64,000 nucleotides of DNA from Escherichia coli (GTDB lineage: Bacteria > Pseudomonadota > Gammaproteobacteria > Enterobacterales > Enterobacteriaceae). The DNA lies in assembly GCF_045037415.1 (NCBI RefSeq), contig NZ_CP173438.1; one strand, 5' to 3'. The position numbers and the translations under genes are program-made. The notes beneath the pieces were generated by a model. The model made no database searches. It was not told where the DNA came from and worked only from the letters and a program-made list of their open reading frames with translations. Shown one piece after another: positions 23,877 to 56,166 of this stretch. How positions within the stretch are numbered: position 1 is the stretch's first letter; each line of letters starts with the position of its first letter.

Positions 23877-25325
23877 TTATTCTCCATGCTCATTTTTCTT
23901 CAGCTTGCGCATCAGAAGCCACATACGTACTGTCCTGACTTTTAAATCTTTATCAGAGACGGATTCCTTCACCAGGTCAGCATGATGCTGGTAGCCATTA
24001 AAGAAGACGTTCAGCACAACGGCGCTAAGGGTTGCGAGCATAATGCCGCTATGCAGCAACGGTTGCAGTACGGCCGGTAACTTAGAAAAGAAATCGTGAG
24101 AGAGCGTTGGCGTCATGCCAACACCGAGACTGATCGCCACAATATAGAGGTTGTAACGGTTAGTGGTGTAGTTACAGCGCGACAGAATTCGAATCCCTGT
24201 CGCCAGTACCATGCCGAACATCACCAGCCCCGCGCCGCCCAGCACAAATTGCGGAATGGAGGCGACCAGCACCGCCATTTTGGGCACCATGCCAAACAGG
24301 ATTAATATAATTCCCGAAGAAATACACACCCAGCGGCTGTGGACGCGCGTCACGCTGACCAGCCCGACGTTCTGCGAAAATGACGTATGTGGGAAGCTGT
24401 TAAACGTGCCTCCAATCATTGTCCCGACCCCATCTACGCGTAACCCACGAATAATGTCCTGGGAAGAGAGTTTGCGACCGACTATTTCACCCAGTGCCAG
24501 GAACATCCCCATTGACTCAATAAATACGATGATGAGTACTGCGGTCATGGTCAAAATGGAAACGGGATCGAAAATCGGCATACCAAATGACATCGGCGTG
24601 ACAATCGCAAACCATGAAGCATCATGTAGCCCGGATAAATTGACTTCATTCATCATCCACGAAAGTAAAAAGCCAAATACAATCCCCAGTAATACGGCGA
24701 CGTTGGACATAAATCCTTTCGCATAGCGAGTAATGAGCAAGATAAAAATTAAGACGGCAAAGGAGATACCTAAATAAACGGGATTACCATATTGCGGATT
24801 CCCTTTACCTCCGGCGGCCCAGTCAATACCCACCTGAATGATGCTAAGCCCGATAGAAGTAATCACCACACCGGTAACCAGTGGCGGGAATAAAGGCATC
24901 AAGCGACCGATAAGTGGCGCTAATAATGTGGTGATAAAACCCGCGGCGATAGTGGCACCGAATATCCCCAGCAGGCCGATATCCGGGTTCATACCAATGG
25001 CTATCATTGGTGTTACAGCGGCGAAGGTCACCGACATAATCACCGGCAGGCGGATCCCCATAAAGCGGCCGATACCGATACATTGCAATAATGTGACGAT
25101 CCCGCAGCAAAAGAGATCCGAGCTAATGAGCATCGCAATAGCTTCTTTTGATAGGCCGAGTCGGTCACCAATCATAAGAGGAACAGCGACTGCACCTGCG
25201 TACATGACAAGGACGTGTTGCAGACCGAGTATGATCAGCTTTCCTGGTGATAATATGCGGTCAACCTCATCAGTTGGGCGGTCTTGCCCAGAAGATGAGG
25301 GAAGTTGGGAATCTATGGCGCTCAT
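23877..25325 (-). CDS. uacT: Uric acid:H+ symporter (NCS2/NAT family)
   Basis: Track ORF 23877..25454; internal start MSAIDSQLPSSSGQ gives 482 aa; polytopic NAT-family membrane protein. Confidence 0.88.
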   Translation of the reverse strand: MSAIDSQLPSSSGQDRPTDEVDRILSPGKLIILGLQHVLVMYAGAVAVPLMIGDRLGLSKEAIAMLISSDLFCCGIVTLLQCIGIGRFMGIRLPVIMSVTFAAVTPMIAIGMNPDIGLLGIFGATIAAGFITTLLAPLIGRLMPLFPPLVTGVVITSIGLSIIQVGIDWAAGGKGNPQYGNPVYLGISFAVLIFILLITRYAKGFMSNVAVLLGIVFGFLLSWMMNEVNLSGLHDASWFAIVTPMSFGMPIFDPVSILTMTAVLIIVFIESMGMFLALGEIVGRKLSSQDIIRGLRVDGVGTMIGGTFNSFPHTSFSQNVGLVSVTRVHSRWVCISSGIILILFGMVPKMAVLVASIPQFVLGGAGLVMFGMVLATGIRILSRCNYTTNRYNLYIVAISLGVGMTPTLSHDFFSKLPAVLQPLLHSGIMLATLSAVVLNVFFNGYQHHADLVKESVSDKDLKVRTVRMWLLMRKLKKNEHGE

Positions 25326-25760
25326 CAGTGTTTCTCCTTTCGCCCGCCAGAGTAAAAAGCAACCGTTTATGTTCATGAAACTGTCTAAACACATGCTCGT
25401 GGAGTGCCAGTTTTTGCGAGGAAGGGGAGTTAGAGACAGGAATTGCGGAGGCAATCACATAATCGTGGTTAAACCACGAAAATGAGAAGAGAACCTGACA
25501 ATGGAATTATCTGTAATTTTCTCATATTGATATTTCATTAATCATTCTGGCATGTCGCACTCTCGCATTTAATCGTTTTTATCTGGATAGCATTCTTTTG
25601 ATCGGCAATGTTGAAATAATGAAAGCGGCATAGATTGAGGGGCAATAATTTGAACTCAGTTGCAAAATTATAATTAAAACGGTCATGCTACCTAATATAT
25701 GCCCGTTTATTGCATCGCGAAATTTGAGAAGACATAACTCATTAAATGAAAGGGATGCAA

Positions 25761-27680
25761 ATGAATAAGTTTATCGCTGCTGAAGCTGCGGAATGTATAG
25801 GCTGCCATGCTTGTGAAATTGCCTGTGCGGTGGCACATAATCAAGAAAACTGGCCGCTGAGTCACAGTGACTTTCGACCGCGTATCCACGTTGTAGGGAA
25901 AGGCCAGGCTGCGAATCCGGTGGCCTGCCATCACTGCAACAATGCCCCTTGCGTTACGGCTTGTCCGGTTAATGCTCTGACTTTCCAGTCCGATAGCGTA
26001 CAACTGGACGAGCAAAAATGTATTGGTTGTAAAAGATGCGCAATCGCTTGCCCCTTTGGCGTCGTTGAGATGGTCGATACGATTGCACAGAAATGCGACC
26101 TTTGTAACCAGCGCAGTTCCGGCACGCAAGCCTGTATTGACGTCTGCCCAACACAGGCGTTACGGCTGATGGACGATAAAGGGTTGCAGCAGATAAAGGT
26201 GGCCCGCCAGCGCAAAACGGCAGCAGGAAAAGCGTCATCAGACGCTCAGCCATCTCGCAGTGCAGCGTTGCTCCCCGTTAACTCGCGTAAAGGCGCAGAT
26301 AAAATTTCAGCGAGTGAACGGAAAACCCACTTTGGCGAAATCTATTGCGGGCTGGATCCACAACAAGCGACTTATGAGAGTGACCGCTGTGTTTATTGTG
26401 CCGAAAAAGCTAACTGCAACTGGCATTGTCCGCTGCATAACGCTATTCCGGATTACATCCGTCTGGTACAGGAAGGAAAGATTATTGAAGCGGCAGAACT
26501 TTGCCACCAGACCAGTTCCTTACCCGAAATCTGCGGCAGGGTATGTCCACAGGACCGTCTTTGTGAAGGTGCATGTACTTTGAAAGATCACTCTGGCGCA
26601 GTCTCTATCGGTAATCTGGAACGCTACATCACCGATACTGCGCTGGCGATGGGCTGGCGTCCCGATGTCAGCAAAGTTGTTCCCCGTAGCGAAAAAGTGG
26701 CGGTGATTGGCGCTGGACCTGCAGGATTAGGGTGTGCTGATATTCTGGCGCGCGCGGGAGTTCAGGTTGATGTCTTTGATCGCCATCCAGAAATTGGCGG
26801 TATGCTGACTTTTGGCATTCCTCCTTTCAAACTCGATAAAACGGTATTAAGCCAGCGGCGAGAGATATTCACCGCAATGGGAATCGATTTCCATCTCAAC
26901 TGTGAAATTGGCCGCGATATCTCTTTCAACGAATTAACGGCGGAATATGATGCTGTTTTCCTCGGCGTGGGGACTTACGGGATGATGCGAGCAGATCTGC
27001 CGCATGAAGATGCGCCTGGTGTCATTCAGGCGTTACCGTTCCTGACCGCCCATACCCGCCAGCTCATGGGATTGCCGGAGTCTGCAGAGTATCCGCTGAC
27101 GGATGTGGAAGGTAAGCGAGTTGTGGTATTGGGCGGTGGCGATACGACAATGGATTGTTTGCGGACTTCCATCCGCCTTAATGCTGCCAGCGTGACCTGT
27201 GCGTATCGTCGTGATGAAGTCAGTATGCCGGGTTCGCGCAAAGAGGTGGTCAATGCCCGCGAGGAAGGTGTTGAGTTTCAGTTCAATGTTCAGCCGCAAT
27301 ATATCGCTTGTGATGAAGATGGACGCTTAACGGCGGTGGGCCTGATTCGTACCGCTATGGGTGAGCCGGGGCCGGATGGCCGCCGTCGTCCTCGTCCGGT
27401 TGCGGGTTCAGAGTTTGAATTGCCCGCCGATGTTCTCATTATGGCCTTTGGTTTCCAGGCACATACCATGCCGTGGTTGCAGGGCAGCGGAATTAAACTC
27501 GATAAATGGGGCCTGATTCAAACCGGCGACGTCGGGTATTTACCCACCCAGACGCATCTGAAAAAAGTCTTTGCTGGTGGTGATGCAGTTCATGGCGCAG
27601 ATCTGGTTGTCACTGCAATGGCCGCAGGAAGGCAGGCGGCGCGCGATATGTTAACTCTGTTTGATACGAAGGCATCGTGA
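25761..27680 (+). CDS. ygfT: Fe-S / FAD-NAD(P) oxidoreductase YgfT (glutamate synthase small-subunit-like)
   Basis: Track ORF 25746..27680; start [11 protein letters not shown] gives 639 aa; 4Fe-4S motif [11 protein letters not shown] and dinucleotide fold VIGAGPAGL. Confidence 0.9.
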
Positions 27681-28168
27681 TGAAATCGTTAATTATCGTT
27701 AATCCGGCTGACTGTATTGGCTGCCGTACTTGTGAAGTGGCCTGTGTGGTCGCTCACCCTTCAGAACAGGAGTTGAATGCCGATATCTTTTTACCCCGGC
27801 TGAAGGTACAACGGCTGGATAGCATCAGTGCGCCGGTGATGTGCCATCAGTGTGAAAACGCCCCTTGTGTTGGCGCTTGTCCCGTGGGGGCGCTGACGAT
27901 GGGCGAGCAGGTGGTGCAGGCAAATTCTGCCCGTTGTATTGGCTGTCAGAGTTGCGTCAGTGCGTGCCCGTTTGGAATGATCACCATTCAGTCATTGCCG
28001 GGGGATACCCGGCAACAAATCGTGAAATGCGATCTCTGTGAACAGCGGGAAGAGGGGCCAGCCTGCGTTGAATCTTGCCCGACACAGGCGCTGCAGTTGC
28101 TGACTGAAAGAGAACTCAGGCGAGTCCGCCAGCAGCGTATTGTTGCCAGCAGTGAGAATCCTCTGTGA
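27677..28168 (+). CDS. ygfS: 4Fe-4S ferredoxin-type protein YgfS
   Basis: 163-aa ORF with repeated CxxCxxCxxxCP clusters ([23 protein letters not shown]); ATGA overlap with ygfT. Confidence 0.9.
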
Positions 28169-28203
28169 AAGAAATCTCCGCGCTGAAAGGCGCGGAGAAT
28201 CTA

Positions 28204-29571
28204 TTAGATTGCCCAACCACCCGCGTAAAACGCGACCAGTGCGGCAGTAATGATCACCGTACCAATATTCAGCTTTTGCCATTCGCGCGCAAAGACGCGA
28301 CCCACCACCAGTGTTACAAAGCCCAGCATAATACCGGTAACGATATTACAAGTCAGAACGATGAACACGGCACACACCAGGCCAGCCATTGCGTCAATAA
28401 AATCGTTGAAATCCAGCTTCGAGACGTTGCTTAACATCAGCAAACCCACGTACATCAGTGCGGGAGCTGTGGCATAACCGGGGATCAGAAACGATAACGG
28501 TGATAAAAACAGAATCATCAGGAACAACACACCAACCACGGTTGCGGTTAAACCGGTTTTCCCCCCGGCGGCGGTTCCTGCCGCTGATTCGATATAAACC
28601 GCCGCGGGCGCTGCGCCCACCAGGCCGGAGAATATTGAACTTACTGAGTCACTGGTCAGGGCTTTGCCGCCGTTGATGATCTGGTTGTCTTTATCCAACA
28701 AATTCGCCTGACCGGCGACGGCACGGATGGTGCCAGTGGCGTCGAACACTGCGGTCATCACCAATGCCAGTACACTCGGAAGTACAGTTGGCTGGAGTGC
28801 GCCCATAATATCGAGGCTGAAAATCAGAGACTTACCATCTTCGCCAGTCAGGCTTGGCATCGCCACCAGACCGTGGTACTTCACCGCTGGGTCAAAGATT
28901 AAGCCGATGATCGAAATTGCAATAATCACCAACAAGATCCCGCCGGGTACGCGGCACTTTTCCAGACCGAAGATGACCGCCAGCCCCAGTAAGCTCATCA
29001 TCACCGGGAAGGAGGTAAAGGCACCGAGCGCCACTGGCAAGCCTTCAATCGGGTTTTTTATAACCATTCCCACACCGTTAGCAGCAATCAGCAGCAGAAA
29101 CAGGCCGATACCGATACCTGTACCGTGAGCGATCCCCATCGGCAAATTACGTAAGATCCAGGTACGCACACCGGTTACGGAAATAGCGGTGAAGATGACG
29201 CCCATCAGAAAGACTGCGCCCAGTGCGACAGGAACGCTAATTTGTTGCCCGAGTACCAGACTGAATGCGGTAAACGCCGTCAAGGAAATAGCGCAACCAA
29301 TCGCCATTGGCAAATTGGCCCATAACCCCATCAGCAACGAGCCGAAGCCCGCGACCAGACAGGTGGCAACAAACACAGCTGCGGGAGGAAAACCTGCTTT
29401 GCCCAGCATTCCCGGAACGACGATAACGGAATAAACCATGGCCAGAAAGGTCGTTAAGCCAGCCAGTACTTCCTGACGAACGGTACTGCCACGAGCGGTA
29501 ATTTTAAAATAATTATCCAGCGCGCCCTGTGGCTTTGGTGCGTCCGGTGTTTGTAGGATGTCTCCAGACAT
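28204..29571 (-). CDS. ghxQ: Guanine/hypoxanthine permease (AzgA-like, YgfQ)
   Basis: 455-aa polytopic membrane [38 protein letters not shown]... Confidence 0.88.
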
Positions 29572-29606
29572 AATGATGTCCTCACGAGGATGTTAAAGTT
29601 TTATTA

Positions 29607-30926
29607 TTAGTTGCGTTCGTACACCAGACGACCATCAACGTAGGTGCGGTAGATCGAACGGTCATCGCCCAACGTCATCATCACGAACAATTTGTCGACT
29701 AAAGAAACAGAGTTGTCATAGCGCAGCTGCTGTAGCGGAGTGGCAGTGGGTTCCATCACCACGAAATCAGCCTCTTTGCCAGGTAAAAAGTTGCCAATCA
29801 AATCGTCAAGGCCCAGAGATTTCGCTCCGCCGAGCGTGGCCAGGTAAAACGCTTCATATGCCGAGAGGCGATAGCCTTGTAATTGCAATACCTTGTAGGC
29901 TTCGTTCAGCGTTTGCAGCATGTTAAAAGTTGTTCCGGCACCGATATCCGTTCCCATGCCCACTTTGACTTTCTTCTGCCATGCTTTTTTCAAGTTGAAT
30001 AAGCCGCTGCCGAGGTAAAGGTTGGAGGTCGGACAGAAAGCAATGCTGGATTTGGTTTCGCTGAGACGATCCCACTCTTTTTCTTCGAGATGGACGCAGT
30101 GAGCAAAGACGCAGTTTTTACCGGTCAGGCCGTACTGATGGTAAACATCAAGATAACCATCATGGTCAGGATAAAGCGATTTCACCCAGGCAATTTCATC
30201 TTTGTTTTCACAGAGATGGGTATGTACCCATGTATCCGGATATTCTTCTTTCAGGCGTTGCGCCATCGCCATCTGTTCAGGAGATGAGGTAGGGGCGAAG
30301 CGTGGCGTAATCGCATACAACAGACGACCATTTTTGTGCCAGCGTTCAATCAGTTCTTTGCTTTGGTGATAGCTGCTTTCGGCAGTGTCGAGCAGATAAT
30401 CCGGTGCGTTTCGGTCCATCATCACTTTACCGGCAATCATACGCATATTGATATGACTGGCGGCTTCAAACAGCGCATCAACGGATTGTGGATGAACAGT
30501 GCCAAACACCAGCGCCGTGGTGGTTCCGTTACGTAAAAGCTGCTTGATGAAGAACGCCGACATCTCGCGGGCGTACTCTAAATCCTCATAACGACGTTCA
30601 GTAGGGAAGGTGTGTTTATTCAACCACTCCAGCAATTGTTCACCATAGGCCCCCACCATTTCACTTTGCGGATAATGGATATGTGTATCGATAAAGCCCG
30701 GTACTATCAGTTTGCCGCGATAGTCGCGCACGCGAATGGTGTCAGGAATTTGATGCTTTCCGTCTTCCCATTCGCCAAACCATTCCACTTTTCCCTGTTT
30801 AATGAGTAATAAACCATCCTCAATAAACCGCAGCGCAGAGGCAATTTCTTCCGGGTTATCGACCGTACGGGTGACATCAATAAAACTGCCTCGTACCGCT
30901 TTTAACGTGTGTTCTCCTGACATCAT
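29607..30926 (-). CDS. guaD: Guanine deaminase
   Basis: Track ORF 29607..31046; start MMSGEHTLKAVRGSF gives 439 aa; amidohydrolase HxH motif PGFIDTHIHYPQ. Confidence 0.92.
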   Translation of the reverse strand: MMSGEHTLKAVRGSFIDVTRTVDNPEEIASALRFIEDGLLLIKQGKVEWFGEWEDGKHQIPDTIRVRDYRGKLIVPGFIDTHIHYPQSEMVGAYGEQLLEWLNKHTFPTERRYEDLEYAREMSAFFIKQLLRNGTTTALVFGTVHPQSVDALFEAASHINMRMIAGKVMMDRNAPDYLLDTAESSYHQSKELIERWHKNGRLLYAITPRFAPTSSPEQMAMAQRLKEEYPDTWVHTHLCENKDEIAWVKSLYPDHDGYLDVYHQYGLTGKNCVFAHCVHLEEKEWDRLSETKSSIAFCPTSNLYLGSGLFNLKKAWQKKVKVGMGTDIGAGTTFNMLQTLNEAYKVLQLQGYRLSAYEAFYLATLGGAKSLGLDDLIGNFLPGKEADFVVMEPTATPLQQLRYDNSVSLVDKLFVMMTLGDDRSIYRTYVDGRLVYERN

Positions 30927-30940
30927 TGACTCCTTTACTG

Positions 30941-32341
30941 TTAATCCATCTCTTCCGCTGAGGTAATACCAGGCAGAACGTTTTCCTGTCGGTAGCCACC
31001 AGGGAGGATAATATTTAATAAAATCGCAGTTAACCCGCCAGCACAAATAGGGTTTTCAACTAATACATAAATAGAGGCTGGCAATATTTTAAAAATTTCG
31101 GGATCGTAGGAGATACCAAGCCCTAAACCTAAAGAAGTGGCAACAATAAGCGTTTCACGGCGCTTTAAACCGTTGGTGATGATGATGCGAATCCCTGCGA
31201 TGGCAATCATGGAAAACATCAACGTCATTGCGCCTCCCAGAACTGCTGAGGGAATGGTCGTGAAGAAGCCGCCAATCATCGGAAATAAGCCGAGGATAAC
31301 CAGCATTACCGCGATGGTTCGCCCGACATAACGTGAAGCGACGCCAGTCATCTGAATAACCCCATTATTTTGCGCAAACGTGGTTAATGGTAATGAACCG
31401 ACAGCGGAGGCGATAACAGAAACCAGACCATCTGCCAGCACGCCGCCTTTCAGTCGGGACTGATACTCTTCCCCCTGAATGGGACGGCGGGAAACCATTG
31501 CCGTGGCGGTGATATCGCCGACAGCTTCCAGCACGCTAAGCAGATAAATCGTGCCAACCACCAGGAACTGATGGAAGCTAAAACTAAAGCCGTATTTGAA
31601 CGGATGCGGGATGGTGATTAACGGCAAATTGCGCATACTGCTGAAATCCACCATGCCCAGGCATAACGATGCGATATAGCCGACACATAGCCCAATGGCG
31701 ATCCCTCCCATGCGTAGCAACGGACTGCGACAGCAGTTAAAGCCGATCACCACAATCAAAACCAATAAACCAACGCCGAGATGTTCGTAATTGCCGAACG
31801 TACCGCTGCTTTTGGCTGCAAATCCTCCACCAAAATCAATAATGCCGACTTTAATCAGGCTTAAGCCGATCATCAGCACCACAATGCCGCTGACGGTAGG
31901 CGTAATAACCCGACGTAAATAGGGCAGGATAAAAGAAGAGCCGACAACCAGAAATGCGCCAACGAAGGAGACGCCGAGGAGCGACGACATGATTAACTCT
32001 TCGTGAAAACCGTCGCTTTTCATGCTGCTGCCCAGCGCAATCATGACCGTAACAAATGAAAAATTGACTGACTGAATTGAAAGTAAACCAGAACCGACGA
32101 TGCCGTAGCGGTTTACTTGTAACCAGGTACCAATACCAGAGGCGATCATCGCCATAGAAACAAGATAGGCAGTTGTTTCAGCGGAAAGCTGTAAGGCCGC
32201 ACCCACGATTAACGCGGGGGTTACCATCGGAACGAAAATTGCCAACAGATGGGTAATGGCACCTACGAGAGCCTGATGAAAGGGAGGGCGATCCTCCAGT
32301 TCAAATATAAGGTCAGAACCTGCATGGTTTATATCAGACAT
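30941..32341 (-). CDS. xanQ: Xanthine permease (NCS2/NAT family, YgfO)
   Basis: Track ORF 30941..32398; start MSDINHAGSDLIFELEDRPPF gives 466 aa. Confidence 0.9.
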   Translation of the reverse strand: MSDINHAGSDLIFELEDRPPFHQALVGAITHLLAIFVPMVTPALIVGAALQLSAETTAYLVSMAMIASGIGTWLQVNRYGIVGSGLLSIQSVNFSFVTVMIALGSSMKSDGFHEELIMSSLLGVSFVGAFLVVGSSFILPYLRRVITPTVSGIVVLMIGLSLIKVGIIDFGGGFAAKSSGTFGNYEHLGVGLLVLIVVIGFNCCRSPLLRMGGIAIGLCVGYIASLCLGMVDFSSMRNLPLITIPHPFKYGFSFSFHQFLVVGTIYLLSVLEAVGDITATAMVSRRPIQGEEYQSRLKGGVLADGLVSVIASAVGSLPLTTFAQNNGVIQMTGVASRYVGRTIAVMLVILGLFPMIGGFFTTIPSAVLGGAMTLMFSMIAIAGIRIIITNGLKRRETLIVATSLGLGLGISYDPEIFKILPASIYVLVENPICAGGLTAILLNIILPGGYRQENVLPGITSAEEMD

Positions 32342-32505
32342 CCCTTCACTCCTTTTAAAGTAAATTTGATCATCTGAATTAGTAAAATAAATTCCCACGA
32401 ATTTGGGGCGCAGGACGCCTTGAGAACGGCTTATCTCATTTTCGCAGTCACTATTTAGTCATCGTTCAAACAGAGAAACAGGCCGCCGAAGCGGCCATTT
32501 ATTAC

Positions 32506-37531: not shown

Positions 37532-37533
37532 GA

Positions 37534-40632: not shown

Positions 40633-40953
40633 AACCCTCTCCTTAGCTTATACAGATATCATTGAGTGACCGGTGTTGAGAAATCCGGTGGTTTAGGGGG
40701 ATAGAGCAACAATCGCACCACTCTTGCCAGGTTTGACGGGAAATATAAAAAAATGTGAGGCGGCTCGAAACTTAATGGCTTTTTGTGAATGAACTCACAG
40801 GTGCCAAATGAGAATTAAAATCACTCCTGAAAATTATTATTGCCAGCCCATTTATCACTTTTTCTCTTTTCTCAAAATCAGTGATTCCTTATCATTATGA
40901 TAAAGAGTGCTGGAGGGATTAAATATTTGAACGCAATCGTTTAACTACGTTTT

Positions 40954-44079: not shown

Positions 44080-44119
44080 ATGAAAATGGCCGGATGGTAT
44101 TACCCATCCGGCCTTTAAA

Positions 44120-45052: not shown

Positions 45053-45099
45053 TTTTCCTCACTCATCATTCTTGATTGTGTATAGATCCCTGGCAGTGG

Positions 45100-46485: not shown

Positions 46486-46537
46486 AGCAAACTCCAAAAA
46501 CCCTCCGGTGAACCGGAGGGGAATAAGTGAAGAGTAA

Positions 46538-47749: not shown

Positions 47750-47806
47750 TATTTTTCTCCAGATTTTTTACTCCCCGTTTTGCAGGGAGCAGTTCCAATA
47801 GGGTGA

Positions 47807-49003
47807 TTAAGGTGCTACAGCGTGTTTGCCTTCCCAGACAACTTCGCGGTAGTGCTTCACGTCGGTGTCGCCTTCAGTGCTGATAACCAGCACCACGGCA
47901 TCTTTGTTCAGCGCCAGTTTTTCCATCAGGCTTTGACGTTGCGGGTGATAATGAACCGCTGCGAGAACGCCCAAACCGACAGCGCCGGATTCACCGGAGA
48001 TGATGCGCGGGTCGTTGCCGTACGGATTACCCAGCACGCGCATACCTAATGCGGCAACGCTGTCCTGGCAGGAGATGAATTGGGTGGCGCAGTTACGTAG
48101 GATTTCCCAGCCCAGCGGGTTAGGTTCGCCGCAGGCCAGGCCCGCCATGATGGTGGCCATATCACCGCCAACGTTGACGATGTCGCCTTTGACGCCGGAG
48201 CGATAAATACAGTCAGCTTTGTCAGGTTCAACAATAATGCTGTGCAGATTTTGCGGGCTATAGACGTCGACCAGATAACCCAGCACACCACCGGCCATTG
48301 CACCGACACCTGCTTGCAGCAGAACGTGTGTCGGGGTTACGCCCATTTCACGCATTTGCTCGACGGCTTCATCCGCCAGTGTTGCGTAGCCTTGCATGAT
48401 CCAGGTTGGGATTTTGGTGTAACCTTCCCATGCCGTGTCCTGTACCACTTCCCAGCCGTGCTGCTGCGCGTGTTGCATGGTCAGGCGAACGGTATCGTCA
48501 TAGTTCATATCCGTGACGATGCACTCGGCACCGAGGTTTAGAATGGCGTCAACGCGTTCCTGAGCAGAACCTTTCGGCATGTAAATCACCGCATTCTGTC
48601 CGAGTTGCTGAGCGGCCCATGCCACACCGCGCCCGTGGTTGCCGTCGGTGGTGGTCGCGAAAGTCATTTTTTCGCCAATGGCATTTTTCAGGTGCTCAAA
48701 TGATAGCGTTTCGATATCAAGATGATATTTTTCACACAATAATTGAGCGATGGCGTATGCGCCGCCGAGCATTTTGAAGGCGTTCAGACCGAAGCGTTTT
48801 GATTCGTCCTTAACGAGAATTTTCTTTACACCAAACAGGTTTGCGAGATCGTCCAGCGCACAAAGCGGTGTTGGGCGATAACCAGCAATTTTCTGGTGGA
48901 ACTGGCGTGCCAGTTTTGCCTGGCTTTGCGAAAAAAGCGGTGATGTTTCGCCGTTGAAAAATTTGTTATCGGCGATATCAATCTTTAATGAGAAAACGGA
49001 CAT
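47807..49003 (-). CDS. dpaL: Diaminopropionate ammonia-lyase (PLP-dependent; YgeX)
   Basis: 398-aa ORF MSVFSLKIDIADNKFFNGETSPLFSQSQAKLARQFHQKIAGYRPTPL... Confidence 0.9.
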   Translation of the reverse strand: MSVFSLKIDIADNKFFNGETSPLFSQSQAKLARQFHQKIAGYRPTPLCALDDLANLFGVKKILVKDESKRFGLNAFKMLGGAYAIAQLLCEKYHLDIETLSFEHLKNAIGEKMTFATTTDGNHGRGVAWAAQQLGQNAVIYMPKGSAQERVDAILNLGAECIVTDMNYDDTVRLTMQHAQQHGWEVVQDTAWEGYTKIPTWIMQGYATLADEAVEQMREMGVTPTHVLLQAGVGAMAGGVLGYLVDVYSPQNLHSIIVEPDKADCIYRSGVKGDIVNVGGDMATIMAGLACGEPNPLGWEILRNCATQFISCQDSVAALGMRVLGNPYGNDPRIISGESGAVGLGVLAAVHYHPQRQSLMEKLALNKDAVVLVISTEGDTDVKHYREVVWEGKHAVAP

Positions 49004-49060
49004 ATCCTATCCTTTTGGCCTCTGGAAATAGAGGGCCGACCAGCTGATCGGCCCGAGGGG

Positions 49061-50251
49061 TTATTTCACGCGTTCTTGCGCTTCTTTCAGCAGTTGCTCG
49101 AGCAGTGCACCTGGTTTGGCGTATTTACGGGACAGGATCATCGCGGCGATGATATAAGGCTTCCAGCTGGCTTCTTTGTAGGTAGCGATACGGTATTTTT
49201 CGAATACGCCTTCAGTCACTTCACCTTCTTTGCAGGATACGCCGCTGATATCAGCTGGCAGGCAGTGCATGTACAGGGCTTCGCCATCACGGGTCAGCTC
49301 CATCATCTCTTCGGTACAATGCCAGTCTTTGTGCTGTGCGTTCTGTGCCAGACACTGTTTTTCCAGCGCTTTCAGTCCTTCGTGATCGTTCGCACGCAGC
49401 AGTTCAGTACGCTCTTCCATCACTTTGTAAGGTGCCCAGGACTTCGGATAAACGATGTCTGCGTCTTTGAAGGCTTCTTCCATGCTGGTGACCTGACGGA
49501 AGCTACCACCGGAGGCTTTAGCATTGTTTTTAGCAACTTCAACGACATCCGGGATCAGGTCGTAGCCTTCCGGATGGGCCAGGGTGACATCCATACCGAA
49601 GCGGGTCATCAGACCGATGATGCCTTGTGGTACAGAGAGCGGTTTGCCATAGCTTGGGGAGTAGGCCCAGGTCATGGCGATTTTTTTACCTTTCAGGTTT
49701 TCCAGTGAACCAAAGTGTTCACGTAACCATGCCAGATCAGCCATTGATTGAGTCGGGTGGTCAATATCGCATTGCAGGTTCACTAAAGCCGGACGCTGCG
49801 GCAGCACACCCTGCTTGTAACCGTCATCAAGTGCAGCGCCAACTTCACGCATATAGGCGTTGCCTGCGCCCAGATACATATCGTCGCGAATACCGATAGC
49901 GTCAGCGCAGAAGGAGATCATATTGGCGGTTTCACGCACGGTTTCGCCGTGAGCGATTTGTGATTTACCTTCGTCAAGATCTTGTTGTGCAAGGCCGAGC
50001 AGGTTAAGCGCGGAAGCATAAGAGAAGCGGGTACGGGTGGAATTGTCGCGGAATACGGAAATACCTAATCCACTATTAAAGACTTTGGTTGAGATGTTTT
50101 CAGCACGCAGTGCTTTTAACGCGGCGGCAACGTCCAGTACTTGTTTCAGTTCGTCTGGCGTCTGTTCCCACGTTAACAAAAAATCTTTTTCATGCAGGTG
50201 AGAGGTCAGCGAATTGATATCCTTAATCAGCTCATTAACAGTTTTCATCAT
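49061..50251 (-). CDS. ygeW: Carbamoyltransferase-family protein YgeW
   Basis: 396 aa; ATCase/OTCase-like fold with STRTR motif (RDNSTRTRFSYASA). Confidence 0.9.
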   Translation of the reverse strand: MMKTVNELIKDINSLTSHLHEKDFLLTWEQTPDELKQVLDVAAALKALRAENISTKVFNSGLGISVFRDNSTRTRFSYASALNLLGLAQQDLDEGKSQIAHGETVRETANMISFCADAIGIRDDMYLGAGNAYMREVGAALDDGYKQGVLPQRPALVNLQCDIDHPTQSMADLAWLREHFGSLENLKGKKIAMTWAYSPSYGKPLSVPQGIIGLMTRFGMDVTLAHPEGYDLIPDVVEVAKNNAKASGGSFRQVTSMEEAFKDADIVYPKSWAPYKVMEERTELLRANDHEGLKALEKQCLAQNAQHKDWHCTEEMMELTRDGEALYMHCLPADISGVSCKEGEVTEGVFEKYRIATYKEASWKPYIIAAMILSRKYAKPGALLEQLLKEAQERVK

Positions 50252-50726
50252 AAAGTCCCGATAGTGGAATGACAGGCAAAGTGGTTTATTTCACTGTGAC
50301 GTGCCAAAGTGATTGGTGTTTTCACAGCTATACCTCGGACTAACAATAAGTGTGCCAGAATTATCCACGCGGCTGCGAAAGGCTAATTTGACGGATAATG
50401 TGTGGGGTTGATCACATATTGATGCCAGTTTCCGGTTGTTTGTAAAATACGAAAACGTTTGGCTTTTTTTATTACGTTATTTATTTGCTGCTAAGTATCA
50501 GAAATAAGATAAAGAGGCAGGCTATCTCTCTTCAGTTTGATAAACTTGCCGCTGTAATTCTCATATTGATATAGAAATGTGATATCTCTTCCATAATTTT
50601 ATTAGAAAGTGATAAAAATCTTATGTTTTTATCAAAGCCAATTTCGCCTGAGTTAATATCATCATGATCTGTGAACCATCAACGTCTTCAATGATCGACT
50701 TTTAAGTAAGTCTGGAAGGTAAAGCT

Positions 50727-52505
50727 ATGGAGCTTGCGACTACGCAGTCAGTATTGATGCAAATTCAACCAACAATTCAGCGTTTTGCCAGAATGCTTGC
50801 CAGCGTTTTGCAGCTTGAGGTTGAGATCGTTGATGAAAACTTGTGTCGCGTCGCCGGAACGGGCGCGTATGGGAAGTTTCTTGGCCGCCAGTTGAGCGGC
50901 AACTCACGTCTGCTCCGCCACGTCCTGGAAACGAAAACTGAAAAAGTTGTGACACAGTCTCGCTTCGATCCCCTTTGTGAAGGTTGCGATAGTAAAGAAA
51001 ATTGCCGCGAAAAAGCATTTCTGGGTACGCCAGTCATTTTACAGGATCGTTGTGTTGGGGTGATAAGTTTGATTGCCGTTACCCACGAGCAACAAGAACA
51101 TATCAGTGATAATTTACGCGAATTTTCCGATTACGTTCGCCATATATCCACCATTTTTGTTTCTAAACTTCTGGAGGATCAGGGACCAGGAGATAACATC
51201 AGTAAAATATTCGCGACCATGATCGATAATATGGATCAGGGCGTGTTAGTGGTTGATGCTGATAATCGGGTTCAGTTTGTTAATCAGACAGCTTTAAAAA
51301 CACTCGGTGTTGTACAAAATAATATTATTGGAAAACCTGTTCGTTTCAGACCATTAACATTTGAGAGTAATTTTACCCATGGTCATATGCAACATATTGT
51401 TTCGTGGGATGATAAAAGTGAATTAATCATTGGTCAGTTGCATAACATCCAGGGCCGACAACTATTTTTAATGGCGTTTCACCAATCGCATACCAGTTTT
51501 TCTGTAGCAAATGCACCTGATGAACCGCATATTGAACAATTGGTTGGCGAGTGCCGTGTTATGCGGCAATTAAAACGACTCATTAGCCGTATTGCACCCA
51601 GCCCATCCAGCGTTATGGTGGTTGGTGAAAGCGGCACGGGTAAAGAAGTCGTCGCCCGTGCAATCCATAAGTTGAGCGGAAGACGGAATAAACCCTTTAT
51701 TGCTATCAACTGTGCCGCGATTCCGGAACAGCTTCTGGAGAGCGAACTGTTCGGTTATGTTAAAGGCGCATTTACTGGCGCTTCTGCCAACGGTAAAACA
51801 GGGTTGATTCAGGCGGCGAATACGGGCACGCTGTTTCTCGATGAAATTGGTGATATGCCATTAATGTTGCAGGCTAAATTACTGCGCGCTATTGAGGCGC
51901 GTGAAATTCTGCCGATTGGTGCCAGTAGCCCAATACAAGTCGACATCCGCATCATTTCTGCAACTAATCAGAATTTGGCCCAGTTCATTGCCGAAGGTAA
52001 ATTCCGCGAAGATCTCTTCTACCGACTTAATGTTATCCCGATAACTCTTCCACCGCTGCGTGAACGTCAGGAAGATATTGAATTACTAGTGCATTACTTT
52101 TTACATCTGCATACCCGTCGTCTGGGATCGGTTTATCCTGGCATTGCTCCTGATGTCGTCGAAATATTGCGTAAGCATCGTTGGCCCGGAAACCTGCGCG
52201 AGTTAAGCAATTTGATGGAATATCTGGTTAACGTTGTTCCTTCAGGTGAAGTTATCGACAGCACGCTATTGCCGCCAAATCTGCTGAATAATGGCACAAC
52301 GGAGCAAAGTGATGTAACAGAGGCCAGTGAGGCGCACCTGTCACTCGATGATGCGGGCGGCACGGCGCTGGAAGAGATGGAAAAGCAAATGATCCGCGAG
52401 GCGCTTTCACGTCATAACAGCAAGAAGGAAGTTGCTGATGAACTGGGCATCGGCATTGCTACGCTCTATCGCAAGATTAAGAAATATGAGTTGTTAAACA
52501 CATAA
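50727..52505 (+). CDS. ygeV: Sigma-54-dependent transcriptional activator YgeV
   Basis: 592 aa; central AAA+ domain with Walker A (GESGTGKE) and the sigma-54-contact motif GAFTGA; C-terminal HTH (ELGIGIATLYRKIKKY). Confidence 0.93.
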   Translation: MELATTQSVLMQIQPTIQRFARMLASVLQLEVEIVDENLCRVAGTGAYGKFLGRQLSGNSRLLRHVLETKTEKVVTQSRFDPLCEGCDSKENCREKAFLGTPVILQDRCVGVISLIAVTHEQQEHISDNLREFSDYVRHISTIFVSKLLEDQGPGDNISKIFATMIDNMDQGVLVVDADNRVQFVNQTALKTLGVVQNNIIGKPVRFRPLTFESNFTHGHMQHIVSWDDKSELIIGQLHNIQGRQLFLMAFHQSHTSFSVANAPDEPHIEQLVGECRVMRQLKRLISRIAPSPSSVMVVGESGTGKEVVARAIHKLSGRRNKPFIAINCAAIPEQLLESELFGYVKGAFTGASANGKTGLIQAANTGTLFLDEIGDMPLMLQAKLLRAIEAREILPIGASSPIQVDIRIISATNQNLAQFIAEGKFREDLFYRLNVIPITLPPLRERQEDIELLVHYFLHLHTRRLGSVYPGIAPDVVEILRKHRWPGNLRELSNLMEYLVNVVPSGEVIDSTLLPPNLLNNGTTEQSDVTEASEAHLSLDDAGGTALEEMEKQMIREALSRHNSKKEVADELGIGIATLYRKIKKYELLNT

Positions 52506-52543
52506 CCTCTGAGAATCCGGCCTGAATTCAGGCCGGATATCTT

Positions 52544-53023
52544 TTACTTTGTTTTCTCGCAATCCAGAACTGTATTTACAATCATCTGATACCCCGTGCA
52601 GCGACAAAGATTTCCCGCCAGTCCACGACGAATTTCCGTAATGGTTAATGGCTTCTCGCGTGGTTTCGCCAGCATTGCCGTGGTAGCCATAATCAGGCCC
52701 GGCGTACAAAACCCGCATTGCACTGCACCAGATTTCGCATAAGCCAGTTGGACATGAGAAAGTTTACCGCCTTTCGCTTCACCTTCCAGCGTGCGGATCT
52801 CTTTTCCTTCAGCCCAGGCCGCAAGGAATAAGCAACTGTCTATCGCAGTGCCGTCGACCAGCACCGTACAGGCACCACATTCACCCACGCAGCACCCTTG
52901 TTTGACACTTAGCAGTCCTTGTTCGCGGAGTAATTCCGAGAGCGGCGTGCCTGGTGCGGCGTGAAGCTGAAAAGGCATCCCGTTAATGGTGCATTCGATG
53001 GTAATTGTTTCGCTGTGATTCAT
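52544..53023 (-). CDS. xdhC: Xanthine dehydrogenase Fe-S subunit
   Basis: 159 aa; 2Fe-2S cysteine motifs [11 protein letters not shown] and CGFCTPG. Confidence 0.93.
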
Positions 53024-53897
53024 TGCAATTTCCCCCCGCCGCGGCGACGGCTTCGCTAATCACTTTTTTGGTCATCGTCTGGATGAGATGCAGACGAAAC
53101 TCTTTACTGGCCCGCCATGACGAACGCGGGGCGACATCTTGCAGGACTGATTCGCTGATGGCTTCCAGCGTTTGCAGGTTTAATGGCGCATTTTGTGCAG
53201 TCTGTTCGGCATGTTGGCAGCGAATCGGCGTTGGCGCGGCAACACCAAATGCCAGGCGTAATTCGCTGAAATTGCCGTTATCCAGTCGGCAATGTGCGGC
53301 GCAGCCAATTGTTGAAATATCCATTGCGTCGCGCATGGCATATTTAAAATGCGCGCTGCCCGCGTGTTCTTTCGGCTGTGGCGGAAAATGAAAGGCGACA
53401 AGGATTTCGTCATGCTCAAGAGACACTTTGCCCGGCCCGGTGTGAAAGCCATTAATCGGGACGAAACGAACACCGCGCGGGGAGTGGATCTCCAGTTTCG
53501 CGTCATAAATTAGCGTTGGCGTGGCAGAATCTGCGCTGGTGGCACCGTTGCAAATATTTCCGCCGTAGGTGGCGACATTACGGATCTGCGGCCCGGCGAT
53601 TGATGCAGCCGCAGCACATAACGCCGGGAGATGACGTTGAGTTACAGGATCTTCAATGAGCTGGGTAAATGTCGTTGCAGAGCCGATACGTAGCGCGCCA
53701 TCTTCCGCCAGCGTAATTCCCCGCAGCTCCGCCAGATTATGAATATCAACAATATGGCGATAACGGTCATTGTGATGGTGAAGCTGTATCAGTACGTCAG
53801 TGCCACCGGCGAGCAGTTTGGCCTGCGGGTTGTCAGTCAGCAGGTTGATGGCATCGGCAAGGGTTGCTGCGCGATGGTAAGAAGCAAAATCAAACAT
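52983..53897 (-). CDS. xdhB: Xanthine dehydrogenase FAD-binding subunit (304-aa reading frame here, 41-nt overlap with xdhC)
   Basis: ORF track gives 304 aa ending ...[22 protein letters not shown]; I recall the K-12 protein as 292 aa, so the C-terminus appears altered (see findings). Confidence 0.85.
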
Positions 53898-53907
53898 GAT
53901 GTTATCC

Positions 53908-56166
53908 TCAAATCAATCCTGCCAGATGGAATTCTTCATATAATCGTTTTGGCGTTAGCGGCAGTGTATTGATTGCAACACCGGTAGCCATCTTCACCGC
54001 GTTACGAATAGCAGCGGCTACAGGAATTATGGGTGGCTCACCCAGTGACTTATGTCCGTATGCGGATTGCGGCTCATTGATTTCGACGAACGCGCTTTCC
54101 AGTTGTGGCAGATCCGGCATGGTCGGCATTTTGTAATCCAGCAGATTGGGGTTACGGACCACGCCGCTTTTCGCATCGATGATCATCTCTTCAAATAGCG
54201 CCCAGCCAATGCCCATCCCCATTCCGCCGTGTACCTGACCTTCTGCCAGCAGCGGATTAAGAATATGGCCCGAATCATGAACGTTGAGGATGCGGTTGAT
54301 GGTTACTTTACACAGTGCAATATCGACCGTCAGATCAACAAAGGTACAGCCAAACGCCGGTGGGTTAGTGGTGGTTTTGATGGAGCTTTCGGCAGAGAGC
54401 TGCCCGCCGCGTTCAGGGTGGTAGAAAGCGTCCATCGCCAAATCTTTTAACGACATTAACGGCTCTTCCGGTCGTTCAACCAGCACGATATGGCCTTTTA
54501 TCAGGGTCAGATTCATCGCTGACTGATGTAGCATGACTGCGGCGTGAGCGATGATTTTCTCTTTTAATAACAGTGCCGCACTGCGCAGCGCAGGCGCGGC
54601 AACATAGCTCTGACGTGAGGCAAATGCGCCGGGGTCGAATGGTGTAACGTCGGTGTCTTGTGTCGAAATTACGCGGACATCGCTGACCGGAACTCCCACG
54701 GTTTCTGCCACCATTTGCGAGAACACGGTGTCGGCACCCTGGCCGATTTCCGTCGCGCCGCTTTGCACGTTGATGGTTCCATCCTGATTCATCAACAGGC
54801 GCGCGCCTGCTATTTCTACGCCGACAGGCCAGGTGTTAGAGGTGTAGCTAAAACAGGCGACGCCAACGCCACGACGTAAATTGCCTTGCTGGTTCTGGCA
54901 CTCTGCACGGCGTTTTTCCCATTCAAAGATTTTCCGGCCTTTTTCAAGACACTCCGGCAACCCTGCGCTGTAAATACGTTTTCCCGTGAGCGGATTAGCA
55001 TCTCCTTCGCGGGCGGCGTTGCGTAAACGAATTTCAACAGGATCAATACCTAACGCTGTCGCGGCATCATCAAGCATAGACTCAACGGCAAATACGACTT
55101 GTGGCGCGCCATAACCACGCATCGCACCAGCCGAGGGGAGGTTGGTATAGCAGGTCTTTGAACTGTAAGCGTAGGCACAACGAGGATAAAGGTAAGCGAC
55201 TTTATTCCCCCCAGCAGAAGCAATGGAGTGCCCGTGAGATGCATAAGCGCCGGTGTTAGACAGAACATCCAGACTATAACCTTTCAATGTTCCGTCGCGG
55301 TTCACGCCCATTTGCCCGTCAATAGTAAAAGCGTGGCGGGTACGGGTTGCGAGGAAACACTCTTCACGGCTAAGAGAAACTTTCACCGGAATGCCGCCAA
55401 GTTTGCTTGTCAGGAATGCCGCCATTGGCTCTTCCAGTACATCCTGTTTATTACCAAAACCGCCACCGATAAACGGTTTGATGACTCGTACGCATGACCA
55501 GGGAATATCCAGCGCCTGACCAACCACGCGGCGAACAATGTGCGGGATCTGGGTGCTGGAAACGATGGTAATTCGCGAGTCATCCTCCATCCATGCCAGC
55601 GATGTCACGCTTTCCATATGACAATGTTGAATAACGGGCGTCTGATAGTGCCCCTGTACCTGGTAGTCGGCGGCATCGATTGTTTGTTGGACATTACCCG
55701 TCGACATCGTGCTTTGTTTCAGTAAATTGCCACCGTTATGGATTGGTGCAGCGTCTTCTGCCAGCGCCGCTTCTGACGAGGTGATAACGGGTAATTCTTG
55801 CCACTCAATGCTGACCAATTGCACCGCTTTTTCTGCCGTGAGTTCATCGCGGGCTACGACGATGGCAACGGCGTCACCATGATGACGAACATGACGCGTT
55901 AGCAGGGCACGATCGGCAGTATCGCGCTTGTTTTCGTCAAGTGTCCAGGCATGCCCTGCCGTGGCGAATGGGATTTCTGGCACATCTTCCCAGGTAAAAA
56001 TCGCCAGGACGCCCGGCAAACTCCTGGCTTGTTCATCATTAATACTTACGGCATAACCATGTGCGATAGGGCTACGTACATATTTCGCGTAACACATGCC
56101 CGCCATAACATAATCGTCAGTATATCGTGCCCGCCCGGTGACCTTAGCAATGGCATCGACGCGCAT
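53908..56166 (-). CDS. xdhA: Xanthine dehydrogenase molybdenum-binding subunit
   Basis: Track ORF 53908..56205; start MRVDAIAKVTGRARYTDDY gives 752 aa. Confidence 0.93.
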   Translation of the reverse strand: MRVDAIAKVTGRARYTDDYVMAGMCYAKYVRSPIAHGYAVSINDEQARSLPGVLAIFTWEDVPEIPFATAGHAWTLDENKRDTADRALLTRHVRHHGDAVAIVVARDELTAEKAVQLVSIEWQELPVITSSEAALAEDAAPIHNGGNLLKQSTMSTGNVQQTIDAADYQVQGHYQTPVIQHCHMESVTSLAWMEDDSRITIVSSTQIPHIVRRVVGQALDIPWSCVRVIKPFIGGGFGNKQDVLEEPMAAFLTSKLGGIPVKVSLSREECFLATRTRHAFTIDGQMGVNRDGTLKGYSLDVLSNTGAYASHGHSIASAGGNKVAYLYPRCAYAYSSKTCYTNLPSAGAMRGYGAPQVVFAVESMLDDAATALGIDPVEIRLRNAAREGDANPLTGKRIYSAGLPECLEKGRKIFEWEKRRAECQNQQGNLRRGVGVACFSYTSNTWPVGVEIAGARLLMNQDGTINVQSGATEIGQGADTVFSQMVAETVGVPVSDVRVISTQDTDVTPFDPGAFASRQSYVAAPALRSAALLLKEKIIAHAAVMLHQSAMNLTLIKGHIVLVERPEEPLMSLKDLAMDAFYHPERGGQLSAESSIKTTTNPPAFGCTFVDLTVDIALCKVTINRILNVHDSGHILNPLLAEGQVHGGMGMGIGWALFEEMIIDAKSGVVRNPNLLDYKMPTMPDLPQLESAFVEINEPQSAYGHKSLGEPPIIPVAAAIRNAVKMATGVAINTLPLTPKRLYEEFHLAGLI

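Follow-up and report, generated by a model that had tools for sequence, protein, structure and literature searches.

An anaerobic urate locus of Escherichia coli with predicted YgeV enhancers resembling those of clostridial DioR

Introduction

Anaerobic Escherichia coli converts urate to acetate, and deletion phenotypes for this conversion have already been published (Liu et al., 10.1101/2022.07.24.501321). The ygeV-ygfT/uacT locus of strain K-12 (about 2.99–3.03 Mb) encodes a pathway for which two names are in use, reductive uric acid pathway and "2,8-dioxopurine" pathway (Li et al. 2025; Liu et al. 2023, 2025; Iwadate & Kato 2019). Here, we analyzed a 64-kb stretch of E. coli DNA (contig NZ_CP173438.1, hereafter the window) that contains the same locus, with identical gene order and content, at positions 23877–56166, from uacT to xdhA (32,290 bp, 50.5% of the window). 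We focused on ygeV, its gene for a sigma-54 activator, and on the promoters that this activator is predicted to control. An earlier annotation of the window, made from sequence (hereafter the original prediction), had described a contiguous 32-kb block spanning about half of the window and had called it an annotated locus rather than a new system. RefSeq annotation and intact open reading frames agree with the extent and gene list given there, and the block is indeed the already known anaerobic purine and urate catabolic locus of E. coli.

The locus is of medical interest. About one third of human urate is removed by gut bacteria, for which this cluster provides the route, and the cluster is being engineered into probiotic E. 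coli Nissle against hyperuricaemia and gout (10.1101/2025.04.24.650524; 10.1101/2025.05.19.654654). The chemistry was established by stepwise reconstitution with E. coli and C. difficile proteins (Li et al., 10.1101/2025.05.19.654654). In that study XdhD-YgfM converted urate to 2,8-dioxopurine with NADH, YgfM co-purifying with XdhD, and a coupled YgfK and SsnA assay yielded ureidomethyl-hydantoin from 2,8-dioxopurine. HyuA opened the hydantoin, YgeW phosphorolysed the 2-ureido group, and YgeY and YgeX completed the route to pyruvate. The phenotypes of ΔxdhA, ΔxdhD and ΔygfK strains were those predicted by the pathway, the ΔxdhA strain failing to consume xanthine. Liu et al. 2025 (10.1101/2025.04.24.650524) reached the same pathway independently and reported that E. 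coli YgeW and YqeA form ATP from 2,3-diureidopropionate in vitro. The anaerobic route from purines and urate to carbamate and ATP that had been suggested for the window from gene content is now demonstrated by these two reconstitutions. The accompanying statement that most members lack a biochemical assignment is outdated, with the reactions of XdhD-YgfM, YgfK, SsnA, HyuA, YgeW, YqeA, YgeY and YgeX all reconstituted (10.1101/2025.05.19.654654; 10.1101/2025.04.24.650524). The deletion and expression experiments proposed at the time have also largely been done in the literature, and they did not give the refuting outcome, in which deletions lack a purine or urate phenotype and expression depends on neither ygeV nor rpoN.

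The closest described systems are the clostridial uric acid clusters (C. sporogenes, C. difficile), which share SsnA, HyuA, YgeY, YgeX, an XdhD-type molybdenum enzyme, YqeB/YqeC and sigma-54 control with the E. coli locus. In C. difficile, a PydA-like enzyme stands in place of YgfK, and a hydrolase replaces YgeW and YqeA, so that there is no ATP step. The C. difficile XdhD has no flavin adenine dinucleotide (FAD) subunit and probably uses ferredoxin, whereas the E. coli enzyme uses NAD(P)H. More distantly, carbamoyltransferase and carbamate kinase likewise yield ATP in the arginine deiminase pathway, and reduction followed by ring hydrolysis, as carried out by PydA/PydB in the reductive pyrimidine (Pyd) pathway, parallels YgfK and SsnA. 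Unlike in these two pathways, the substrates here are purine-derived and the first step is a molybdenum hydroxylase working in reverse. On the regulatory side, Nie et al. 2019 (PMC6615313) predicted TTATCA-N3-TGATAA as the enhancer motif of DioR, a clostridial activator whose function was given as "unknown" and whose predicted regulon comprises dpaL, ygeW-ygfK-ssnA-ygeY, xdhABC, pbuX, yqeB and yqeC. DioR has been described only in Clostridiales, and our literature search turned up no paper in which it is connected with E. coli YgeV. With the enzymology largely published since 2023, the increment presented here is modest: the link between YgeV and DioR, and the mapped enhancer sites.

Sigma-54 promoters and predicted enhancers in four promoter regions

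Chromatin immunoprecipitation sequencing (ChIP-seq) of sigma-54 has identified sites upstream of xdhA, ygeW, ygfK and ygfT (Bonocora et al. 2015, PMC4591121), the four genes for which a promoter scan had originally been proposed. We located all four in the window, scoring both strands of the 64 kb with a matrix built from 59 other sites of that study. The -24/-12 element of ygeW (50342–50358, minus strand; CTGGCACACTTATTGTT) is an exact match to site OS30 and has the best sigma-54 score in the window (13.9), followed by that of ygfK (40705–40721, minus strand; GTGGTGCGATTGTTGCT), an exact match to OS31 (13.5). The xdhA element (56261–56277, minus strand; CTGGCGTAATTCTTGCC) is one spacer base off OS29 (CTGGCGTAAATCTTGCC) and ties for sixth best (12.5 bits), and the ygfT element (25698–25714, plus strand; TATGCCCGTTTATTGCA) matches OS32 exactly at 6.4 bits. 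In addition, a genomic systematic evolution of ligands by exponential enrichment (gSELEX) study placed an RpoN holoenzyme peak in the ygeV/ygeW spacer. The ygfK element is conserved in Enterobacter sp. Bisph1 and in a more distant locus, L083. The ygeW promoter has an odd -12 (TTGTT, not TTGC) that is kept in 4/4 loci (E. coli, Enterobacter sp. Bisph1, L083 and a second distant locus, L084), its counterparts lying at 9604–9620 in L002 (Enterobacter sp. Bisph1), 7710–7726 in L083 and 7868–7884 in L084. This conserved, sub-optimal -12 may tune activator dependence.

Upstream of the four promoters we found the 15-bp palindrome TTATCA-N3-TGATAA. The window holds 8 instances with at most two mismatches (2.7 expected), 5 of them within the four spacers. 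A matrix trained only on ten of the published clostridial DioR sites (PMC6615313), an independent set, gave its four best hits in the window at one site per promoter region; shuffled sequence yielded a mean of 0.58 hits of at least 14 bits, compared with 4 here. Enrichment of TATCA/TGATA k-mers pointed to the motif as well and was not specific for ygfT, and the palindrome and matrix tests were used instead.

The best hit in the window is the predicted ygfK enhancer (40887–40905; TTATCATTATGATAA, 20.4 bits), a zero-mismatch palindrome with the predicted start site 202 bp downstream. Its sequence is almost the same as that of the ygeW-ygfK site published for C. botulinum (ATTTATCATAATGATAAGG), and the palindrome is kept in Enterobacter. 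Second best is the predicted ygfT/uacT enhancer (25517–25535; TTTTCTCATATTGATATTT, 19.7 bits), which precedes the predicted ygfT start site by 199 bp and is separated from the uacT start codon by 201 bp. The predicted ygeW/ygeV enhancer (50556–50574; 17.8 bits, third best) has the predicted ygeW start site 234 bp downstream of it. It shares its 15-nt core with the ygfT site, its Enterobacter counterpart is a perfect palindrome, and a weaker second site is found at 50527–50545. The predicted xdhA enhancer (56393–56411; TAAAATCAATGTGATAAAT, 15.2 bits, fourth best) is 152 bp upstream of its predicted start site. These distances of 152–234 bp, taken from the centres of the sites, fall in the 100–250 bp range reported for clostridial activators (PMC6615313). 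In the model that we propose, YgeV bound at TTATCA-N3-TGATAA, about 150–235 bp upstream, would activate sigma-54-dependent transcription of xdhABC, of ygeW-ygeX-ygeY (extending to hyuA and yqeA), of ygfK-ssnA-ygfM-xdhD, of ygfT-ygfS and possibly of uacT.

Two of the spacers also carry candidate CRP sites. A perfect CRP consensus, TGTGA-N6-TCACA (40784–40799), the only zero-mismatch match in the window, lies between enhancer and promoter of ygfK, with its centre 97.5 bp ahead of the predicted start site; Enterobacter keeps its left half-site only. Similarly, a CRP-like site with one mismatch (50401–50416; TGTGATCAACCCCACA) lies between enhancer and promoter of ygeW, and both of its half-sites are conserved in Enterobacter. 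Glucose represses urate degradation, and a "native Crp site" has been noted in the ygeV-ygeW spacer (Li et al., 10.1101/2025.05.19.654654). The two sites probably provide this glucose repression together with a DNA bend between enhancer and promoter. Li et al. swapped the whole ygeV-ygeW intergenic region (10.1101/2025.05.19.654654); the enhancer and CRP sites predicted here offer concrete targets for de-repressing the pathway.

Several other candidates in the window were set aside. A fifth DioR-like site, inside yqeC (42278–42296; TTTTCTCAATGTGAGAATG, 13.6 bits, with yqeB about 160 bp downstream), was treated as a chance match because no sigma-54 element lies downstream of it before yqeB, although it might be a relic, yqeB being part of the clostridial DioR regulon. 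A PurR-box-like sequence in the ygeV-ygeW spacer (50449–50464; ACGAAAACGTTTGGCT) was not significant, with at least one match in 46 of 100 shuffles, and Enterobacter sp. Bisph1 has a deletion of this part of the spacer. Upstream of uacT, on the minus strand at 25394–25409, a sequence with a perfect -24 and a poor -12 (TGGCACTCCACGAGCA, below 9 bits) is found about 125 bp from the enhancer at 25517–25535. We found neither ygfU nor uacT among the entries of the sigma-54 ChIP-seq paper (PMC4591121) and, given also the poor -12 and the low score, demoted this sequence to a weak possibility of a uacT promoter sharing the ygfT enhancer.

YgeV and its relatives

The ygeV gene (also isrR; 50727–52505, plus strand) encodes a protein with GAF-like, PAS, AAA+ and Fis-type HTH (helix-turn-helix) domains. 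Its Walker A motif (GESGTGKE, residues 300–307) and DEIG (372–375) are present, the GAFTGA motif that had been called intact is found at residues 347–352, and the Pfam matches include the sigma-54 interaction domain (Sigma54_activat, PF00158, 2e-70) and HTH_8 (6e-13). With an AAA+ domain, a Fis-type HTH and cognate -24/-12 promoters nearby, YgeV has the features expected of an enhancer-binding protein. No Response_reg was present among 29 Pfam domain hits (E ≤ 10), and YgeV has no receiver domain, so that the label "orphan response regulator" given to YgeV/IsrR (PMC9426417) fails at the domain level.

The N-terminal 268 residues (window 50727–51530) delimit a family that, clustered at 50%, has 927 representatives. 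According to profile search and a confident structural model (predicted local distance difference test score 84), this sensor consists of a GAF-like domain followed by PAS, with DhaR(N), the N-terminal part of E. coli DhaR, among the closest matches. Three cysteines, C84-x2-C87-x5-C93, are invariant in 83/83 aligned full-length proteins (YgeV and 82 representatives), as are G46, G111 and N186; no solved structure shows this CxxCx5C motif. E. coli DhaR shares the four-domain GAF-PAS-AAA+-HTH architecture with YgeV. It is, however, only 14% identical, is controlled by binding DhaK and DhaL, and lacks the invariant CxxCx5C. DhaR works with sigma-70.

Both ygfK and ygfT are strongly induced by urate (10.1101/2022.07.24.501321), which makes urate or a pathway intermediate the obvious candidate signal, and the YgeV sensor presumably, if speculatively, responds to one of these. 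The cysteine motif suggests, equally speculatively, a metal, Fe-S or redox input. A tentative and rather doubtful extension is that the YgeV/DioR sensor represents a new type of input to sigma-54 activators, in which a metal or Fe-S centre at C84/C87/C93 would gate activity by oxygen, redox state or cofactor supply and urate or 2,8-dioxopurine would be sensed in that pocket or by the adjacent PAS domain. Were this the case, a single family of regulators, whose one enhancer motif is conserved between Clostridia and E. coli, would merge the "anaerobic" and "purine present" signals in a pathway that affects host urate.

We searched for the same layout elsewhere. A contig scan with full-length YgeV returned 79 loci, mostly generic AAA+ domain matches, with about 8 full-length relatives; a word-indexed protein search returned near-identical E. 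coli proteins only and no divergent orthologues. The combination of sigma-54 promoter and enhancer recurs in five loci (L002, L003, L005, L083 and L084), three apparently proteobacterial and two from Firmicutes (a Clostridium metagenome-assembled genome (MAG) and Sedimentibacter). In Enterobacter sp. Bisph1, whose YgeV is 69% identical, perfect palindromes and -24/-12 elements are kept at ygeW and ygfK and the surrounding spacer has diverged. The more distant L083 (1–17797) and L084 (1–17863) carry a compact cluster around ygeV, with an enhancer and a sigma-54 promoter at each divergent region. Their genes run from ygfK through an xdhC-like gene and yqeA-hyuA-ygeY-ygeX-ygeW to divergent ygeV, followed by a mocA-like gene, a gene for a Fer2 protein, a fused XdhA-XdhB and divergent ygfT-ygfS, the presence of which in both loci marks ygfT-ygfS as a conserved member of the cluster. 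The xdhC-like maturation gene of these two loci has a sigma-54 element of its own. In Sedimentibacter, three perfect palindromes lie upstream of a strong sigma-54 promoter before ygeX-ygeW-ygeY-ygfK-yqeA-ssnA.

The presence of sites follows the DNA-binding domain. Homologues with the recognition helix LGIGIATLYRK have DioR-type sites nearby, and at loci whose homologue has different recognition-helix residues we did not find such sites. The helix is identical between YgeV and the homologues compared, including the full-length proteins encoded beside purine clusters in the Clostridium MAG and Sedimentibacter, which are 36–39% identical to YgeV (these values do not refer to the named DioR proteins CBO2889 and CD3186). 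The DioR group of Clostridiales shares its predicted targets with YgeV (dpaL, ygeW-ygfK-ssnA-ygeY, xdhABC, pbuX), as well as the TTATCA-N3-TGATAA motif and the 100–250 bp enhancer-promoter range. Since the DioR-trained matrix hits the four promoters and the layout recurs in other loci, YgeV looks like the proteobacterial counterpart, or orthologue, of DioR, predicted to control directly the four promoter regions rather than the block in its entirety. This correspondence would let results pass between work on E. coli and work on Clostridium, two literatures that differ in the names used and between which we found no cross-reference.

Genes of the urate route

The enzymes of the reconstituted pathway are all encoded in the block. 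Urate reductase (2,8-dioxopurine dehydrogenase) is represented by its Mo/Fe-S subunit XdhD (32506–35376, minus strand; TIGR03313, 2117 bits against a cut-off of 1102) and its FAD subunit YgfM (35373–36152, minus strand; TIGR03312, 488 against 241), both scoring about twice the curated cut-offs. Glu606, the residue highlighted by Li et al., is present in XdhD. Downstream of the ygfK promoter, ygfK (37534–40632, minus strand; TIGR03315, 1779 bits against 835), for the Fe-S flavoenzyme dearomatising 2,8-dioxopurine, and ssnA (36203–37531, minus strand; TIGR03314, 738 against 455), for the amidohydrolase opening the reduced pyrimidine ring, are adjacent and 2 nt apart. The remaining steps are encoded by one co-oriented run on the minus strand, whose products are above curated cut-offs in 5/5 cases: the carbamate kinase gene yqeA (arcC-like; 44120–45052; TIGR00746, 385 bits against 358), hyuA for the hydantoinase that opens the hydantoin ring (45100–46485; TIGR02033, 668 against 393), ygeY for an M20 hydrolase removing the 3-ureido group (46538–47749; TIGR03526, 722 against 321), ygeX/dpaL for diaminopropionate ammonia-lyase, forming pyruvate and ammonia (47807–49003; TIGR03528, 651 against 532), and ygeW for a knotted carbamoyltransferase that phosphorolyses the 2-ureido group (49061–50248; NF005538, 825 against 453). 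On the plus strand, ygfT (uacF; 25761–27680; NF009451, 1500 bits against 1154) encodes an Fe-S flavoprotein needed for formate-dependent urate use, followed by ygfS (27680–28168), an intact open reading frame for a 4Fe-4S dicluster ferredoxin-like protein that resembles HydN and the AegA N-terminus and scores below family cut-offs.

According to the literature, purines are taken up via XanQ, GhxQ and UacT, and urate is formed from guanine, hypoxanthine and xanthine by GuaD and XdhABC. Urate is then reduced to 2,8-dioxopurine by XdhD-YgfM at the expense of NADH. The ring is reduced by YgfK and opened by SsnA, giving ureidomethyl-hydantoin, after which HyuA acts on the hydantoin ring. One ureido group is released by YgeW as carbamoyl phosphate, from which YqeA forms ATP; YgeY strips the second ureido group, and YgeX turns diaminopropionate into pyruvate and ammonia.

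Molybdenum and selenium accessory genes

The molybdenum-cofactor gene mocA and the putative selenium-cofactor genes yqeB and yqeC, listed as such from the beginning, pass curated family cut-offs. MocA (40954–41532, minus strand; TIGR03310, 216 bits against 186) is a molybdenum cofactor cytidylyltransferase, an enzyme that makes the cytidine form of the cofactor. YqeC (41636–42406, plus strand; TIGR03172, 236 against 73) is a selenium-cofactor marker protein, and YqeB (42454–44079, plus strand; TIGR03309, 417 against 220) combines XdhC-like and YqeB domains associated with maturation of selenium-dependent molybdenum hydroxylases. The two genes are markers of the selenium-dependent molybdenum hydroxylase trait (Haft & Self 2008) and stand here beside a molybdenum hydroxylase; selD, for selenophosphate synthase, is not in this window. 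In C. difficile, urate and xanthine use needs yqeB and not yqeC, deletion of the latter having no obvious growth phenotype (Johnstone and Self, PMC11448449), and clostridial molybdenum enzymes require selenophosphate synthase (10.1101/2025.04.24.650524). YqeB, and perhaps YqeC too, would mature a selenium-dependent molybdenum centre.

Extent of the YgeV regulon and alternative explanations

Overall, we consider it very probable that the block is the anaerobic urate locus, with the pathway as reconstituted and with four units under YgeV and sigma-54 control. Several observations weigh against this reading or narrow it. The published YgeV iModulon consists of these operons, including uacT, and omits xanQ-guaD-ghxQ, mocA, yqeB, yqeC, yqeA and ygfS; in the window scan we found no sigma-54 promoter before xanQ-guaD-ghxQ, mocA, yqeC, yqeB, yqeA or ygfS. 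Taken together, these omissions mean that "one supercluster, one regulator" overstates the case. The original prediction was right in assigning a dedicated sigma-54 activator, ygeV, to the block and went too far in treating the whole as its regulon, which is predicted to reach four promoter regions only. The ygfT -24/-12 is weak, the xdhA enhancer is the weakest of the four predicted sites, and the assignment of YgeV to the four enhancers comes from sequence and comparative evidence. YgfT and YgfS are not assigned a reaction, selenium dependence is shown for the clostridial enzymes (C. sporogenes, C. difficile) and not for E. coli XdhD or XdhA, and ties of YgeV to indole, virulence and ethanol stress are left unexplained. 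The block is thus one metabolic unit with four promoter regions predicted to be YgeV-controlled and further genes under other control. Intergenic hairpins between ygeY and hyuA (46501–46520), ygeW and ygeX (49033–49054) and xdhD and xanQ (32481–32496) may attenuate read-through.

The partial iModulon could also mean that independent operons for transport and salvage, xanthine dehydrogenase, urate degradation and cofactor maturation are juxtaposed by chance. Enterobacter sp. Bisph1 keeps ygeV, ygeW-yqeA and ygfK and lacks both xdhABC and mocA/yqeC at this position, and the GC content of the block, ordinary for E. coli, bears no mark of a single acquired island. Yet every gene fits one route, which leads from uptake to pyruvate and includes the supply of cofactors, the enhancer motif is common to four separate promoter regions, and compact versions around ygeV (xdh, ygfT-ygfS, mocA-like, xdhC-like, ygeW-yqeA) exist in L083 and L084 and also in Firmicutes, so that we regard mere juxtaposition as unlikely. 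Somewhat less likely still is that YgeV (IsrR) is mainly an indole-responsive virulence or general stress regulator, with an incidental purine neighbourhood and other factors controlling the purine operons. In enterohaemorrhagic E. coli, ygeV is among the most indole-induced genes, and a C. rodentium mutant in isrR shows attenuation with altered LEE (locus of enterocyte effacement) expression (PMC9426417); activity of the YgeV iModulon is highest in baeR or cpxR knockouts exposed to ethanol. The indole study, however, shows regulation of ygeV transcription and neither ligand binding nor direct binding to LEE DNA (PMC9426417). YgeV also lacks a receiver domain, its full-length homologues adjoin urate or purine genes across phyla, and each of the locus's four sigma-54 promoters has a DioR-type site upstream. 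Moreover, ygfT expression is reported to be reduced in a ygeV mutant, and so depends on ygeV. The indole, virulence and ethanol links may be real side effects that do not account for the conserved synteny and enhancers.

A different function has been suggested by gene names. NCBIfam and RefSeq use "putative selenate reductase subunit YgfK", Se_sel_red_Mo, Se_sel_red_FAD and "selenium metabolism-linked hydrolase", and an older genetic report is said to link ygfK to selenate reduction. If YgfK, YgfM and XdhD formed a selenate reductase, the block would serve selenium metabolism more than purine catabolism. Purified XdhD-YgfM, by contrast, yields 2,8-dioxopurine from urate, YgfK with SsnA then yields ureidomethyl-hydantoin, and ΔxdhD and ΔygfK strains lose exactly those steps in vivo. 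The selenium link is accounted for by the selenium-dependent molybdenum cofactor (PMC2276186). The "selenate reductase" label for YgfK and XdhD is superseded by direct enzymology, and this explanation, largely refuted, is in our view highly improbable next to the urate pathway.

Transport, salvage and xanthine dehydrogenase genes

The remaining genes of the block serve uptake and conversion of purines. At its left end, uacT (23877–25325, minus strand), a member of the YgeV iModulon, encodes a urate/H+ symporter of the NCS2 type (482 aa; TIGR03173, 509.7 bits against 414). The minus-strand group in the middle comprises ghxQ (28204–29571; guanine/hypoxanthine transporter by RefSeq annotation, intact open reading frame), guaD (29607–30923; guanine deaminase, TIGR02967, 635 against 375) and xanQ (30941–32341; xanthine/H+ symporter by RefSeq annotation, TIGR00801, 455 against 292). 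Xanthine dehydrogenase is encoded on the minus strand at the right end by xdhC (Fe-S subunit, 52544–53023; NF007387, 338 against 212), xdhB (FAD subunit, 52983–53897; NF007427, 530 against 287) and xdhA (molybdenum subunit, 53908–56205; NF007426, 1474 against 916).

The block boundary at 56166 corresponds to the K-12 xdhA start codon; the current RefSeq start lies 39 nt further upstream, at 56205, and has GAGGGG upstream of it. With the xdhA promoter and enhancer extending to 56411, the functional right edge is about 250 bp beyond this boundary. In xdhB, a G6 run is present at 53032–53037 where other strains carry G7. This 1-nt deletion replaces the last three residues, KLQ*, with 15 other residues and removes the ATGA stop/start overlap with xdhC. 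The exact 66-nt stretch is common to only 18/5261 complete E. coli genomes, a rarity that points to a rare allele or a homopolymer assembly error.

Conservation of the locus and neighbouring features

The locus is widespread in the species. The first 20 kb of the block were matched in 5374/5426 complete E. coli genomes and covered to at least 80% in 5155 (~95%). In the RefSeq annotation of a 100%-identical strain the gene order is uacT, ygfT, ygfS, ghxQ, guaD, xanQ, xdhD, ygfM, ssnA, ygfK, mocA, yqeC, yqeB, yqeA (arcC), hyuA, ygeY, dpaL (ygeX), ygeW, ygeV, xdhC, xdhB and xdhA. All 22 open reading frames are intact at the expected coordinates, the xdhB C-terminal frameshift variant being the sole deviation. 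The curated NCBIfam cut-off of the expected family was passed by 19/22 products, often twofold. The exceptions are YgeV (generic sigma-54 activator models only), GhxQ (no model at a search threshold of 1e-20) and YgfS (below cut-offs). An Rfam scan placed no family anywhere inside the block.

Compared with the K-12 locus, only strain-level differences were found: the single substitution in the xdhA promoter spacer, the rare 1-nt xdhB deletion and the absence of ETT2 genes. At 57453–59072 of the window, tRNA-Gly is directly followed by yqeG, yqeF, kduI, kduD and araE, as in strain SK1144. K-12 presumably carries remnants of the ETT2 secretion island between tRNA-Gly and the yqeG-araE genes, and the strain analyzed here appears to be without them. 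Left of the block, at about 20411–21509, prfB contains a programmed +1 frameshift and is a two-piece coding sequence in the matching RefSeq record. Finally, Rfam identified a Sib antitoxin RNA opposite the ibsC toxin gene, as well as 6S RNA (ssrS), at 748–898 and 1547–1730 (minus strand), respectively, both common in E. coli and unrelated to the block.

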